From: Candidatus Helarchaeota ASGARD archaeon Hel_GB_B
GTDB lineage: Archaea > Asgardarchaeota > Lokiarchaeia > Helarchaeales > HEL-GB-B
Length of the DNA stretch: 32,000 nt
Assembly (NCBI GenBank): GCA_005191425.1
Contig: SUPR01000013.1
Location: 1-32,000 of the forward strand
Direction of reading: 5' to 3'
Notes under the pieces: model-generated
Database searches by the model: none
What the model saw: only the letters and a program-made list of their open reading frames with translations
Told to the model about the DNA's origin: nothing
Part shown: in pieces, positions 4,772 to 22,305 of the stretch
Numbering within the stretch: the stretch's first letter is position 1
Layout of the letters: each line of letters starts with the position of its first letter
Position numbers and translations under genes: made by a program

Positions 4772-5329
4772 ATGGGTAGTAAATTGAAAGACGATGATTT
4801 TTTAGATATGCGGAAATTTGTAGATGATATATCTATTAATATGGATGATTATATCAAAATAAATTTTTTAACGCCTTATCAATTAAAAATTAAAAGCGAT
4901 GCAATATTTGAAGAATTACCATTATTTAAGAACACATCAAGTCCCAGATCTTATGATTGGAGCAAAAGGGTTGATGAAGAATTAGAAATTTTTGAGATTT
5001 TAAAACAAAAATATAGATATTCGGTTGGATATTTAGTATTTGATGATTTAAAGAAAAGACTCGGCAATGATAGAGTCTGGGAAACTAACTTTTATTTTTC
5101 TAGGGATTCTAGACCGTTAAAATTAGAAATAAGATTGTCTTTAATGTACCCAAGGCAAATTCCTTTAGTTAGTCGCTCAACTGGTGATTATCATGTCACG
5201 CTTACAGACAAATGTTTCGGATTACTTGAGCGACGTTGGCGTTCTGATGGAAAATATGGACTACCTCATTTTTGTACTATGATTGGTTATTATTATGCAC
5301 TAGAAAAAATGAGTAGAATTATTGATTAA
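4772..5329 (+). CDS. E2/UBC-like protein A
   Basis: Helix-1 motif KRVDEELE, then LEIRLSLMYPRQIP, and C148 in KCFGLLERRW matching the E2 pattern YP..P...C...L...W. No HPN motif. Paralogous to 8229-8762 and 7341-8171. Confidence 0.75.
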   Translation: MGSKLKDDDFLDMRKFVDDISINMDDYIKINFLTPYQLKIKSDAIFEELPLFKNTSSPRSYDWSKRVDEELEIFEILKQKYRYSVGYLVFDDLKKRLGNDRVWETNFYFSRDSRPLKLEIRLSLMYPRQIPLVSRSTGDYHVTLTDKCFGLLERRWRSDGKYGLPHFCTMIGYYYALEKMSRIID

Positions 5330-5351
5330 TTAATAATAAGGGATATATATC

Positions 5352-6413
5352 TTGAAAAATAAGAAATTTTGGTCATCTAAAAAAAATATTGATAGAATTC
5401 AAGATAATTATGATGATTTGGATTATGAAGAAAAACCATTAGTCACTCATATTATACTTCCAACTAAATTATGGCTGAAAGCACTTGAAGAAGGGCGTAA
5501 AACTTCAAATGAAGTTGGTTTTTTTATCATTGGGTTATTTAAAGGTAAAATTTGTTATGTTTATAACTTAATTGAGTTTGATTATATTGAACAATCAGGC
5601 GCTTTTATAGAATCTGGCGTCAAACGATTAGCAAGAATAAGGGCTGGGCTCCCTGTTGGGCTAAAAATTGTAGGTAATATGCATAAACACCCTGGATTTC
5701 TTGGATACAGCGGTACTGATAAAAGAGATTATTTAAAATATGGTGCCATGTCATCTCAAAATGCTTTTTTAATTTATATAGTTGAACCTTATGATGGAAT
5801 TGCAGGTTATACTGCAACAGAATCTAAAATTCATAAAATTGAAGTTGATATCAGAGATTTAGACCCTGATGAAATGTTGATTGAAAAAAATATTTCACTT
5901 CAAGTCAATTTTCCAATGGTAGTTCAAAAATCTGATTATATAAAAAGTATAAGGTTTAAATTAATTGACCAATTAAGTTCTGAAATATTGAAAAACTTTT
6001 CTCGAGGTAATCTAGTCGATAATGATGATTTTATACTCCCCGGTATGCTTACTGGAGCTGAAATTAGTGATAATTTAAAATTAAATCCAAAAATCCCTTT
6101 GTTTATTAAAAATATTGGAATAAATAAAGAAATGATTTTTCGGATTTTTATGGAACCTGAGAATACTTTAAATGATTTAAAAGAAATATTACTTGATATG
6201 ACTAAAATAAGCGATTATGATATTTCAAAAATTCAATTTTATGAAAATAATAAATTAGTCCCTAGTTATACTAAAATATCCAAAATTAACTCTGTTTTAG
6301 ATTGGAAAATCGAGTTATTACCTTTAAAAAAATTCAAATTAACATCTTTTAAGGATTTATTTGATATTATTATTAATTACTATATCTCTATAATTTATAA
6401 ATGGGTTGATTAA
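5352..6413 (+). CDS. JAB/MPN+ (JAMM) metalloprotease with C-terminal ubiquitin-like domain
   Basis: E54 (NEVG) and H111-K-H113-x6-S120-x2-D123. Residues ~248-324 align by eye with ubiquitin. TTG start. Confidence 0.85.
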   Translation: MKNKKFWSSKKNIDRIQDNYDDLDYEEKPLVTHIILPTKLWLKALEEGRKTSNEVGFFIIGLFKGKICYVYNLIEFDYIEQSGAFIESGVKRLARIRAGLPVGLKIVGNMHKHPGFLGYSGTDKRDYLKYGAMSSQNAFLIYIVEPYDGIAGYTATESKIHKIEVDIRDLDPDEMLIEKNISLQVNFPMVVQKSDYIKSIRFKLIDQLSSEILKNFSRGNLVDNDDFILPGMLTGAEISDNLKLNPKIPLFIKNIGINKEMIFRIFMEPENTLNDLKEILLDMTKISDYDISKIQFYENNKLVPSYTKISKINSVLDWKIELLPLKKFKLTSFKDLFDIIINYYISIIYKWVD

Positions 6414-7235
6414 ATGTTATTACCTATTGAAGAACGCGAAGAACTTGCACTTAATATGCCTAAAATATTTTCTCGAGTAATTTTTGCGGGTTATGATATA
6501 AGAAAATTTCTAAATACTACTGTATTCATTGCAGGTGCAGGTGGACTTGGAAGAATAGTTGCCGACATTTTAAATCGTTCTGGATTTGGTAAATTTATAA
6601 TAGTAGACAAAGATATTATAGAAGAGGAGAATTTAAATAGGATGAACCATAGTGAAGAAGATATAGGAAAAAATAAAGCCGAATCTCTCGCCAACTTCCT
6701 TGAACGTACCAGAAACCTTCCTAATATTGATAAAAAATTTTATGTCAAAACAGAATGGTATCAAGCAAATGTCATTGCGTGGGAAAAATTAGAAGAGATG
6801 ATTAAAAAATCGGACATTATTTTCACATGTTTCGATAATGAAGCTGCAAGAATTGAAGTGAATTTATTTGCTGTCCTTGAAAAAAAAATCCTTATAGATG
6901 GTGGAACTTCTGAAAATGCACTTAGGGGCATAATTAATAATGTAATTCCTGGTAAAACTCCTTGTTTAGAGTGTTATTATAGTCCAAACACTTTAATTGA
7001 CATTCAATCCGATGATCCAAAATTGCTTATTCCAAAAATTCCATGTGGGGCAAGTTTAGCAACAACAATGAATATAACTGGTAGCATTCAAGCTGACCAA
7101 GGAATAAAACTAATATTAAATGAGCCAATCCATTCACAAATTAGATTTTCATTAGAAAGAGAAATATCATTACAATATTTTGATTTTGATCCTAGACCAA
7201 ATTGTGAAGCATGTGGGAATCTAAATAATAAATAA
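6414..7235 (+). CDS. ThiF/MoeB-type E1-like activating enzyme
   Basis: GAGGLG, DKD..EENLNR, K in GKNKAE, D in TCFDN, two CxxC Zn pairs (PCLEC, NCEAC), putative catalytic Cys in KIPCGAS. ATG directly follows the JAB stop codon. Confidence 0.92.
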   Translation: MLLPIEEREELALNMPKIFSRVIFAGYDIRKFLNTTVFIAGAGGLGRIVADILNRSGFGKFIIVDKDIIEEENLNRMNHSEEDIGKNKAESLANFLERTRNLPNIDKKFYVKTEWYQANVIAWEKLEEMIKKSDIIFTCFDNEAARIEVNLFAVLEKKILIDGGTSENALRGIINNVIPGKTPCLECYYSPNTLIDIQSDDPKLLIPKIPCGASLATTMNITGSIQADQGIKLILNEPIHSQIRFSLEREISLQYFDFDPRPNCEACGNLNNK

Positions 7236-7340: not shown

Positions 7341-8171
7341 TTAATAAAAATGAATATTAATGGCTCTGGGCTTGGCTAAATTTATTTCTATCTGCGTGGA
7401 ATTTGCTATTGAAGTATAATAACCAAGTAATTGTATAAAATGCGCGATTCCCATTCTTCCATCAGACCTCCATCTGTTTTTCAAAATTCCAAAACATGCA
7501 TTTTTGTGTTCTCCGGCTGGACTAAACCATTTCCCAAAATAATATCCATCAGCTACTGGCATTACAAATGGATAATGTAGACTTAATCTAAGGTCGAATA
7601 CAACTCCATGAAATGAGCATTTAAATATTCTATCACTATTTGCCTGTTTATATATACTAAAACTGGAAAATTCTTCGCGTAATTTATATAAATAATTCAA
7701 TTTATTATATTCCTCTTGGAGTCTGTCCAACCAGTTTGGTGATGTCGGTTTTGCAACTATATTAAATAATGGAATTTCTCTTGAAATCAAATTATGATTT
7801 AATGATTTCTGAGGCTCTTTTTTTATTTTGGTTAATTTTCCAAGTAATAAATCTATTTTTAACCCAATTTCGTCCAAAATTTTAATAAAATATAAAAGTA
7901 TTCCCAACTTTTGTTGCGTCCTAAGAATTACTATACTATTCATAGATGTTTTAAAGAGCATTACTCCTGAAACATTTTGAATATAATAATAATCACCAAT
8001 TGCAAATGACAAACCTCTCTTATTAATAAAGTTAGAGAGAGCTGTCAAAAATTTTCCAAAACTTATATCTGAATATTTAATATTGCCTTGAACATCAGAA
8101 ATTACAACCTCTACATTAGTCCAAGGTGCCATTACAGACTTTATTTCGGTCGCAATATCTGAAAAATTCAT
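7341..8171 (-). CDS. Roadblock/LC7-like N-terminal domain fused to E2/UBC-like domain C
   Basis: Residues 1-112 show an alpha-beta-beta-alpha-beta-beta-beta-alpha pattern (VVISDVQGNIKYS ... LGILL). The C-terminal half has DRLQEE, LRLSLHYPFVMP and NACFGILKNRW...GIAHF. Confidence 0.7.
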   Translation of the reverse strand: MNFSDIATEIKSVMAPWTNVEVVISDVQGNIKYSDISFGKFLTALSNFINKRGLSFAIGDYYYIQNVSGVMLFKTSMNSIVILRTQQKLGILLYFIKILDEIGLKIDLLLGKLTKIKKEPQKSLNHNLISREIPLFNIVAKPTSPNWLDRLQEEYNKLNYLYKLREEFSSFSIYKQANSDRIFKCSFHGVVFDLRLSLHYPFVMPVADGYYFGKWFSPAGEHKNACFGILKNRWRSDGRMGIAHFIQLLGYYTSIANSTQIEINLAKPRAINIHFY

Positions 8172-8228
8172 ATTTTTTAACCCAAATTTGTAATTTTTAA
8201 AAATTTAACACATCTCAAAAATATGTAT

Positions 8229-20054: not shown

Positions 20055-21329
20055 TTATTTTTTATAAAGTTCTCCCCATAAATCTATAGCAATTTTTAAT
20101 TCTTTGTGAGTTTTAGCATAGTCATTTAGTTTAATTCCTTGGATAGTGGCTGATACTGCTTGTACCATTGCTCTTGCTCCAGCTTCAGTACCATCTGGGT
20201 GTCCGTGGACACCACCTCCAGCTTGAATGACAATATCTTTTCCTAGTAGTTCAATATTTCTTTGGACAATTCCTGGGTGAATCCCACCTGATGCTACTGG
20301 AAAAGTCTTTTTAAGATTGTACCAATCACTCCGCAAAAATTTATAAATCTCTTGAATTTCTGGAAGTTCATCTACATCTCCCATTTTACCCGCACCTGTT
20401 CCACTGTGTAATTGGTCTCCTCCTACCAGCCTTACTAGCTTTGCAATTACAAGCATAGAAATTCCATAGCTCCTTGCCCTTGTTATTGCTCCGTGCATGG
20501 TCCTATGAATATGTATTGGTAATTTAATTGATTCATCTTCTGCTATTATTTTTACAGCACTAAAACCGCAAGTTAGAACGTCAATCATTAAACAATTTGC
20601 GCCATTATCCTTTGCAAAATCTGCTAAATCAAGTAACTTATCATAATCAGATGAAATATTTACTGCATATAAAACAGTTTTACCGGATTCTTCTTTAAAA
20701 GTATCTAGTTTTTCCATTACACTAGTTAATCTTTGTTCAAAAGGACAGAAATTTTGATTTGTCAATGTTTCATCGTCTTTTATTAAATCAAGTCCGCCTT
20801 TAGCTGCTCTATAAGCTATTAATGCTGTTTGTTTTGGATTTAGACCAACTTTTGGTTTAATAATAGTACCAATATGGGGCCTTTTACTATCTTGGGTTCC
20901 GCAAATCTTTCTAATTCCTTCTATTCCAAATTTAGGGCCCGGAAAATATCTTACATATTTTTCAGGAAAATTGACATCTACAAGTCTTACCTTTTTTAGT
21001 TCAGTTAGTCCAAATAAATTTCCTGCAATTATGCTTAATAAATTAGGTATACTGCCTGTTTCAATGTCAAATAGATCTACTGGGTAAGCTATAGCAATCA
21101 TCCCAGAATTTGTACCAGAAAACTCGAAAGCTTTACCGGCTAAATCTTCTCTCATAAATTCAATATCATGCTCTAACTTTGCCCATGTCCCTATCGATTC
21201 TTCTGCTGCAATAATTTTACCTACTTTTTGTAATGATAGTTTTGATTCAACAATATATTTTGCAATAATATTATCTTTAGGGTCAATATCCTCTGGATTA
21301 GAAAAATAAATTGAATCGTCATAACTCAT
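20055..21329 (-). CDS. rbcL: RuBisCO large subunit, archaeal form III-type
   Basis: Catalytic set intact: AAEESIGTW, GNLFG, IIKPK, IKDDE, HIHR, LHSGT..GKM, ASGG, QAGGG; adjacent to R15P isomerase. Confidence 0.92.
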   Translation of the reverse strand: MSYDDSIYFSNPEDIDPKDNIIAKYIVESKLSLQKVGKIIAAEESIGTWAKLEHDIEFMREDLAGKAFEFSGTNSGMIAIAYPVDLFDIETGSIPNLLSIIAGNLFGLTELKKVRLVDVNFPEKYVRYFPGPKFGIEGIRKICGTQDSKRPHIGTIIKPKVGLNPKQTALIAYRAAKGGLDLIKDDETLTNQNFCPFEQRLTSVMEKLDTFKEESGKTVLYAVNISSDYDKLLDLADFAKDNGANCLMIDVLTCGFSAVKIIAEDESIKLPIHIHRTMHGAITRARSYGISMLVIAKLVRLVGGDQLHSGTGAGKMGDVDELPEIQEIYKFLRSDWYNLKKTFPVASGGIHPGIVQRNIELLGKDIVIQAGGGVHGHPDGTEAGARAMVQAVSATIQGIKLNDYAKTHKELKIAIDLWGELYKK

Positions 21330-21336
21330 TTATTAA

Positions 21337-22305
21337 TCACTCCAATTTACGTAACTTTTTTATAATATTTGAAATGTGATTCTCATAAATATGAAAAATC
21401 AAAGTGGGTGGAAAAACTCCTACATTAGTTATCAAACCATCAATATATTCCCTAGAAATAGTTTCAAAAGCTGGATTTAAAATTGTTAAATTCTTATCAT
21501 TAGGACGGTCATGCCATATTTCATCAGGACTTCTTTTTTCAATTTCTATAAGATAACCTAATGACGTATTTGGGGCATATTTAATTAATGGGGTTGCAAC
21601 ATAAAATGGGACGTCCATTTCATGAGCTGCAAGTGCCAACAATCTAGAACCTATCTTGTTAACAATAGTACCTTCTGAAGTTATAGAATCACAACCTGTT
21701 ATAATTAAATCCACTGTTTTATGCTTTAAAATCCATCTCATGGCTGAATCAACAATTAATGTCGTTGGGATTCCATTTTCAAGTAGTTCACTTACTGTAA
21801 TTTTACCCTGATATTTTGGTCGCGTCTCTGTGCATATAACTTGAAAATCTTTGCCCATTTTTTTTGCTGTACTGAAAATATTTGATACAACTGATGAATG
21901 ACAGTGCGTCATAATAGTACTACCATCTTCAATTCTTCTTGCACCTATTTCACCAATGACTTCTTTAGCTTCCTTAATCATTTGAATATAATATGAACTT
22001 ACAATTTGGATTCTATGTTTTACCGAATTAACGACATTTTTTTCATCAAGATTTTCAATATTTAAACCTTGAATGACATGCCTTAGTCCATTTACTAATC
22101 CTGGTTCCGTAGGTCTAGCATTGCTCAGTAATGACTGTGCTTTTTCAATTTCTTTTTTTAATGTTTTTAAATTATCAATACTGACAGATTGAATATAATC
22201 AGAAAAAGCTTTAATTCCAGTCATAGCAATATTTGTAGCCCCTTGGATTTTGATTTTATGGATATCATCAACAACTCTTTTTAAATCTTCCATTTTTCTT
22301 CCCAT
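21337..22305 (-). CDS. e2b2: Ribose-1,5-bisphosphate isomerase (eIF2B-alpha-like)
   Basis: IQGATNIA, RPTEP, THCHS, ETRPKYQG, GCDSIT, NKIGS, NPAFE; 7 nt upstream of rbcL. Confidence 0.9.
   Translation of the reverse strand: MGRKMEDLKRVVDDIHKIKIQGATNIAMTGIKAFSDYIQSVSIDNLKTLKKEIEKAQSLLSNARPTEPGLVNGLRHVIQGLNIENLDEKNVVNSVKHRIQIVSSYYIQMIKEAKEVIGEIGARRIEDGSTIMTHCHSSVVSNIFSTAKKMGKDFQVICTETRPKYQGKITVSELLENGIPTTLIVDSAMRWILKHKTVDLIITGCDSITSEGTIVNKIGSRLLALAAHEMDVPFYVATPLIKYAPNTSLGYLIEIEKRSPDEIWHDRPNDKNLTILNPAFETISREYIDGLITNVGVFPPTLIFHIYENHISNIIKKLRKLE

Follow-up and report, generated by a model that had tools for sequence, protein, structure and literature searches.

What does a conjugating enzyme of the E2 type do with a roadblock domain at its N-terminus, and is such a protein real in the first place? 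The question is raised by a gene of Candidatus Helarchaeota Hel_GB_B (assembly GCA_005191425.1), which lies in a window of 32,000 nt, positions 1-32,000 of contig SUPR01000013.1. A first-pass annotation of the DNA had placed a roadblock-E2 fusion at 7341-8171. The ORF is found exactly there, and its 276-residue product consists of two domains (table 1). The same annotation knew of no earlier description of such a fusion, and our literature search likewise gave no paper on one.

The possibility that the gene is an assembly artefact of a single genome had to be taken seriously, and two sets of data speak on it. First, among 5.8 billion protein clusters searched, seven contain full-length fusion orthologues (276-283 residues, 58-76% identity), all of which align with the fusion protein end to end, from residue 1 onward; where their source is named, they belong to Helarchaeota or Lokiarchaeota MAGs. 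Second, DNA that is near-identical to the locus is present in hydrothermal-vent and marine-sediment runs of several studies, and the linker codons are bridged with zero differences by contigs X2 (7485-8698), X6 (7541-7890) and X3 (7718-7925), which come from three other metagenome sequencing runs. Because contigs of other runs bridge the domain junction, the fusion is not an assembly artefact; the two-domain architecture is genuine and conserved. Mean pairwise identity among the orthologues is 68% in the roadblock part (residues 1-112), 22% in the linker (113-130) and 76% in the E2 part (131-258), which indicates that both domains are under constraint while the linker between them varies freely. 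Neither split (shorter) nor longer forms of the fusion appeared in word-based searches, which are weak negatives. No RNA run containing the locus is listed among public runs, and a scan for promoters and terminators, based on a bacterial consensus that is not applicable to archaea, gave no more than chance.

Table 1. Positions of the fusion gene, its parts, its neighbours and related genes (window numbering unless a contig is given).
Feature	Position	Strand	Remarks
Roadblock-E2 fusion gene	7341..8171	-	276-aa ORF, ATG start; stop codon 7341-7343
Roadblock-fold N-terminal domain, residues 1-112	7836..8171	-	AF2 models and structural matches
Variable linker, residues 113-130	7782..7835	-	pLDDT <50; indels among orthologues
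UFC1-type E2 domain and short C-terminal tail, residues 131-276	7344..7781	-	Profile and Foldseek
Codon of Cys226, predicted thioester-forming cysteine	7494..7496	-	Translation reads EHKNACFGI
E2b, UFC1-like paralogue without roadblock domain	8229..8762	-	35% identity to fusion E2 domain
UBA5-like E1, ThiF fold, 273 aa	6414..7235	+	Pfam ThiF 7e-40; convergent with fusion gene
Probable JAB/MPN metallopeptidase, 353 aa	5352..6413	+	HKH-x6-S-x2-D motif; weak JAB leads
E2a, third UFC1-like paralogue, 185 aa	4772..5329	+	34% identity to fusion E2 domain
Paralogue, 297 aa, roadblock-like domain, acidic linker and winged helix (HTH_47)	G000:C97:22519-22824 (L032 961-1854)		
Paralogue, 222 aa, roadblock-like domain, acidic linker and winged helix (HTH_47)	G000:C18:3749-4072 (L033 1192-1860)		
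Ufm1-like modifier candidate, 93 aa, ends QLG-FR	G000:C160:55393-55659 (L055 1492-1773)	-	

Scans of the fusion protein against Pfam and NCBIfam gave sub-threshold matches alone (UFC1 at 0.016, OB_Dis3, CheC) or none, and an Atlas shape search with the model of the whole protein returned nothing decisive. The first-pass description of the C-terminal half, a linker followed by a Cys-bearing E2 domain, holds for the models, in which residues 113-130 have low confidence and an E2 with a conserved Cys follows, and the E2 can be named more precisely as UFC1-type. The family profile (A4) matches UFC1 chains with E-values of 4e-13 to 1e-11, whereas canonical E2s are matched at about 4e-5 or weaker, the nearest being UBE2L6 and UBE2N (3.7e-5). 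The alignment with UFC1 extends over about 130 residues and covers the N-terminal signature IP-x-F/L-K...P...W..R..EE, the YP...P motif, the Cys and the G-I/L-A-H motif. Cys226 falls on the Cys of the UFC1 ICL motif, which we take to be the catalytic Cys116. In the model built from 29 sequences, a helix (residues 147-164) is followed by four strands, with pLDDT of 73-93 over most of the domain; Foldseek superimposes residues 131-271 on UFC1 residues 12-164 with a probability of 1.0 and a TM-score by hit of about 0.58, UFC1 being ranked first in both the PDB and the Swiss-Prot models. As judged from profile and model, the E2 domain is closer to UFC1 than to other E2 families.

The closeness has its limits. 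Solved UFC1 (PDB 3kpa, 2z6o, 7nvk) is the best match of the domain in both profile and fold, and the two have in common IP..K..A.PR..W..R.KEEY, YP...P, the Cys, G-L/I-A-H and the lack of HPN. Unlike UFC1, however, the fusion protein carries an extra roadblock domain of 112 residues, and its E2 domain reaches only 15.3 bits with Pfam UFC1 (PF08694; cut-off 25), over residues 131-166 only; a genome-wide search with that family did not pick up any of the three E2 paralogues of the locus. Ahead of Cys226, HPN is absent and TAK, a motif that appears in the entry title of PDB 9i9m, is not conserved, the stretch reading G-K-W-F-S-P-A-G-E-H-K-N-A-C and varying across the family. Being below the Pfam cut-off and not keeping TAK, the family is therefore to be regarded as a UFC1-type sister family and not as UFC1 itself. 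It is present in 10 of 301 genomes of the phylum that were searched.

The lack of HPN or TAK also leads to the question of whether the domain is an enzyme at all. It could be UEV/RWD-like and non-catalytic, so that the protein would be a scaffold binding the modifier or the tagged proteins; the paralogues match RWD weakly (E 0.07 and 0.006), and with three paralogues at one locus there is room for one to have lost activity. Nevertheless, Cys226 is invariant in 29 of 29 members, every fusion orthologue included, and the profile match to UFC1, an active enzyme, spans the active-site loop. Also invariant in the alignment are Arg150 and Glu154, the residues of the YP...P motif (Tyr200, Pro201 and Pro205) and the His of G-I-A-H (His244). 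Taken together, these positions make a non-catalytic domain very improbable.

The neighbouring genes point in the direction of an active enzyme as well. The E1 encoded next to the fusion gene has UBA5 as its best solved relative (1.7e-22 against 2e-14 for MccB), eight orders better than MccB or MoeB, and a C-x-A-S-L-x-T-T-M stretch as well as a CxxC motif align between it and UBA5. Like UFC1, the fusion is thus tied to a UBA5-type E1, here as a neighbouring gene. E2a is the first gene of an E2a-JAB-E1 operon (4772-7235, +), which converges with the fusion gene, and its G294 orthologue heads the same operon. E2b is encoded on the strand of the fusion gene, 57 bp upstream of it, in a pair order that is found again in L026 and L028, and the two are probably co-transcribed. 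The E2 domain of the fusion is one of three UFC1-like paralogues at the locus, whose mutual identity is about 35% and which carry differing N-terminal extensions. The whole arrangement of E2a-JAB-E1, fusion and E2b recurs in L026/L027 and in L028. On a wider scale, an operon of the order (Ubl)-E2-JAB-E1-E2, in which Ubl is a small ORF, is conserved across five Asgard families; the linkage between an E2 and a UBA5-type E1, as a linkage of genes only, is kept in eight loci, in all of which the JAB gene adjoins the E1 gene.

The 353-aa protein is a probable JAB/MPN metallopeptidase with an HKH-x6-S-x2-D motif. No Pfam family matches it, and an Atlas feature search returned JAB leads only, which are weak (scores 0.79-0.82). 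About 170 residues extend the protein C-terminally beyond the metalloprotease motif and match no family; its orthologues are 272 to 476 aa long. The presence of a JAB metallopeptidase also sets this gene cluster apart from eukaryotes, which use UFSP cysteine proteases. In its gene content the cluster nonetheless resembles the UFM1 protein-tagging pathway, and we consider it more likely than not (a probability of roughly 0.6) that the product of the fusion gene is an active E2 of UFC1 type, working in an archaeal UFM1-like tagging system, with the roadblock domain attached through a flexible linker of about 20 residues. The activity is predicted from the conservation of Cys226 and of the cassette and from the UFC1 signatures.

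Adjacent to the cassette lies a gene for an AAA+ protein (8911-10593, +), in which an N-terminal coiled coil and a possible C-terminal winged helix were judged by eye. Its stop codon overlaps the start of smc (10593-14117, +), and between SMC and ScpB a protein of 232 aa is encoded (14120-14818), which has no Pfam match and may be a kleisin. The order AAA-SMC-232 aa-ScpB is also seen in L026 and L028. A functional link between the fusion and these genes was considered and set aside, because the synteny is limited to close relatives and no AAA or SMC-ScpB genes turned up next to the cassette in the remaining families that were examined.

If the E2 is active, the next question is what the N-terminal domain adds to it. 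Roadblock topology had been proposed for this part, and the fold is supported by structure comparison: the listed secondary-structure elements agree with the AlphaFold2 models, and both VIA-align and Foldseek lead to roadblock proteins. Two models, built from seven orthologues and from 29 sequences, give the order a-b-b-a-b-b-b-a with pLDDT mostly between 76 and 93, the elements being a helix at residues 3-14, strands at 21-26 and 31-34, a helix at 39-55, strands at 61-64, 70-74 and 79-84, and a helix at 91-109. In an exhaustive VIA-align comparison with 48,161 solved chains, the best match was 8yqk_A, the roadblock domain of a Lokiarchaeota Roadblock-Longin protein (Z 11.6, rmsd 3.4, 106 aligned residues, 22% identity). 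It was followed at Z 8-10 by Mon1/Ccz1, a Streptomyces Roadblock/LC7 protein, Ragulator, roadblocks of Thorarchaeota and Prometheoarchaeum, and MglB; roadblock/longin platform proteins occupy nine of the 12 top rows, after which GAF domains and profilins appear at Z of about 8. Foldseek matched 8yql_A (E 1.6e-5).

Sequence searches place the domain far from the known family. A direct scan with Pfam Robl_LC7 (PF03259) gave no match at E-values up to 1, and a search of the genome with the same family returned 19 hits and at least 17 Pfam roadblock genes, with the N-terminal domain of the fusion absent. Comparison by hhalign with 16 of the Pfam-positive roadblock proteins of the genome was not significant (E 0.06-0.16, probability <1%). 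A profile search of the PDB had 8yqk at the top with a non-significant E of 0.41, and an Atlas feature search with residues 1-120 gave weak leads (0.85-0.90), Robl_LC7 in 13% of one cluster and MAPKK1_Int in another. The N-terminal domain is a roadblock fold, yet it forms a divergent branch outside Pfam Robl_LC7, and therefore the functions of MglB or Ragulator cannot simply be transferred to it.

With the Asgard roadblocks of known structure (8yqk/8yql; 7f8m of Thorarchaeota; 9jue, 9jq8 and 7yh1 of Prometheoarchaeum) the domain has the a-b-b-a-b-b-b-a fold in common, and the entries other than 8yqk match it at Z 8-9; however, these proteins stand alone or are joined to longin, whereas the domain described here is joined to an enzyme. 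The likeness to MglB, the LAMTOR subunits of Ragulator and Mon1-Ccz1 is at the level of fold, with identity of only 4-15%, and the fusion has no linked GTPase gene.

By sequence, the domain has few relatives, and they are of a different kind: a profile search of 1.8 billion representatives found only five proteins, none of them annotated as roadblock. The relatives, which include P0008, P0009, P0011 and two proteins of the genome itself, encoded on contigs C97 and C18, align end to end with the domain at 25-31% identity (E 2e-5 to 8e-4). In these Asgard proteins the same domain is N-terminal and is followed by an acidic linker and by winged-helix domains (HTH_47, TrmB and NPRL3 HTH), of which the C97 and C18 paralogues have one or two each. 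P0011 (493 aa) matches the HTH family of the GATOR1 subunit NPRL3 (E 6.6e-8), and one of the winged-helix relatives matches DUF742 weakly (E 7e-4). In actinobacterial conservons, DUF742 has roadblock and GTPase genes as its partners. Each of the order's seven genomes encodes winged-helix relatives, whose C-terminal part is not an E2, and only two of these genomes encode the fusion.

Considering these relatives, it can be asked whether the roadblock part docks on a small GTPase or on a roadblock/longin GTPase platform, in which case the E2 would, with no E3, tag the GTPase or proteins that partner with it. On the one hand, the best structural matches are proteins of GTPase platforms (Asgard roadblock, Mon1-Ccz1, Ragulator, MglB and the C-terminal domains of Rag), the winged-helix paralogues lead to NPRL3 and DUF742, and Pfam roadblock genes are numerous in the genome. 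On the other hand, in three loci (the window, L026 and L028) the genes up to about 8 kb from the fusion include none of a GTPase family, though partners may be encoded farther away; when the neighbours of the roadblock-like winged-helix paralogues were clustered, neither a conserved partner gene nor an adjacent GTPase was seen, and no conserved neighbour was found that would tie either the fusion or the paralogues to any target, GTPase or other. Moreover, the domain is divergent, and a common fold is not proof of a common partner. The genome also encodes a UFL1-like protein, a 726-aa ORF (G000:C160:19235-20509; L056/L057) that matches Pfam E3_UFM1_ligase above the cut-off in two stretches and is at the same time the best, sub-threshold, match to DDRGK; an E3-type scaffold may therefore exist. 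Docking on a GTPase platform thus seems unlikely to us. The same tentative standing is given to the wider proposal, in line with the first-pass annotation, that the domain plugs the E2 into a roadblock/longin platform, be it a small-GTPase complex or the winged-helix paralogues, and that this built-in adaptor, and not an E3, aims the tagging; we would doubt it as well.

A simpler role for the roadblock part would be oligomerisation, in which a dimeric E2 suits the dimeric UBA5-type E1 and no target is chosen. UBA5 is a homodimer that acts in trans, and the entry titles of the solved Asgard roadblock structures describe homodimers. In addition, the E1 of the locus has 273 aa and is without the long C-terminal tail by which human UBA5 binds UFC1, its alignment with UBA5 stopping near the adenylation domain. 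However, E2a and E2b presumably function without any roadblock domain, and the operon of other Asgard families does without a roadblock-E2, which renders mere oligomerisation improbable. Complex prediction for a pair of 1-114 fragments lent no support to a homodimer and yielded no verdict, an outcome that says nothing either way.

We infer, in preference to these alternatives, that the roadblock domain tethers the E2 to a partner or target; the docking role is suggested by the fold, by the strong conservation of the domain and by the differences among the E2 paralogues, which lie mainly at the N-terminus. In the proposed scheme, the JAB peptidase would trim the modifier and expose a Gly, and the E1 would adenylate the modifier and hand it to Cys226. 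The three E2 paralogues would have the E1 and the modifier in common, and their differing N-terminal parts would set the place of work. In the fusion, the roadblock domain would be a module for protein-protein docking; it may pair with a roadblock-type domain, either that of a second fusion molecule or that of one of the two winged-helix paralogues, and in this way the charged E2 would reach a specific complex or substrate.

Such a scheme needs a modifier, and a candidate is encoded in the genome. The operon-linked small ORFs of other Asgard genomes encode 85-110 aa and end in LG followed by 0-4 residues, as expected of a modifier that needs trimming. A profile built from these ORFs found one copy in the Hel_GB_B genome, the candidate of table 1, which is not linked to the E1/E2 cluster here and which in a sister family heads the operon (G294, L051 4926-5195). 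The likeness to Ufm1 is weak: Pfam Ufm1 matches two of the seven members at E 0.06 and has no match in the genome, and a profile search of the PDB with the candidates gave nothing.

The distribution of the fusion is narrow. Both of the two species genomes of the order in which it occurs, out of seven, belong to one genus, and it may therefore be a minor lineage-specific variant. A tree of the E2 domains, built by maximum likelihood, places the clade of fusions as sister to the order's E2b pair with weak support (80/54). The simplest reading is that E2b was duplicated and that one copy then gained the N-terminal domain of the paralogue family.

In one survey (PMC10183829), UFM1, UFC1, C53 and UFSP2 were found in eukaryotes only, and UFL1 and DDRGK1 were traced to Asgard archaea; a study of 2026 (PMC12962969) describes Ufm1 homologues in nine Asgard clades, with UFC1 and UBA5 not mentioned. 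The present locus adds an Asgard E2 family of UFC1 type beside a UBA5-like E1. Furthermore, it can be viewed as a natural experiment in aiming an E2: one core is present three times at a single locus with differing N-terminal parts, among them a domain with relatives that organise complexes of small GTPases. If the roadblock domain does select targets, this would be E3-independent targeting in a forerunner of UFMylation; if the platform reading were true, it would link UFM1-like tagging in archaea with GTPase-platform signalling, both of which were inherited by eukaryotes. Since each of the proteins is small and expression should be feasible, loading, dimerisation and the choice of partner are directly testable.

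Other members of the E2 family have surroundings of their own. In Asgard families f22 and f25 a second module is seen, in which a UFC1-like E2 of about 183 aa adjoins a zinc-ribbon protein (DUF4428, 110-150 aa) in all seven loci (L038, L041, L043, L045, L046, L048 and L050). A Lhr-type helicase (about 955 aa) is found near the pair in six loci and a TYW3-like methyltransferase in five, neither being present in the short contig L050. A further member of 277 aa (L052 5122-5955, +; G294:C227) has an N-terminal extension of about 117 residues that is unlike roadblock, and it forms a very long branch in the tree. Elsewhere in the window (20055-22305, -), a RuBisCO large subunit of form III type is encoded beside an IF-2B-family protein of the ribose-1,5-bisphosphate isomerase type, and this pair is flanked by ECF/ABC transporter genes and DHH phosphoesterases.
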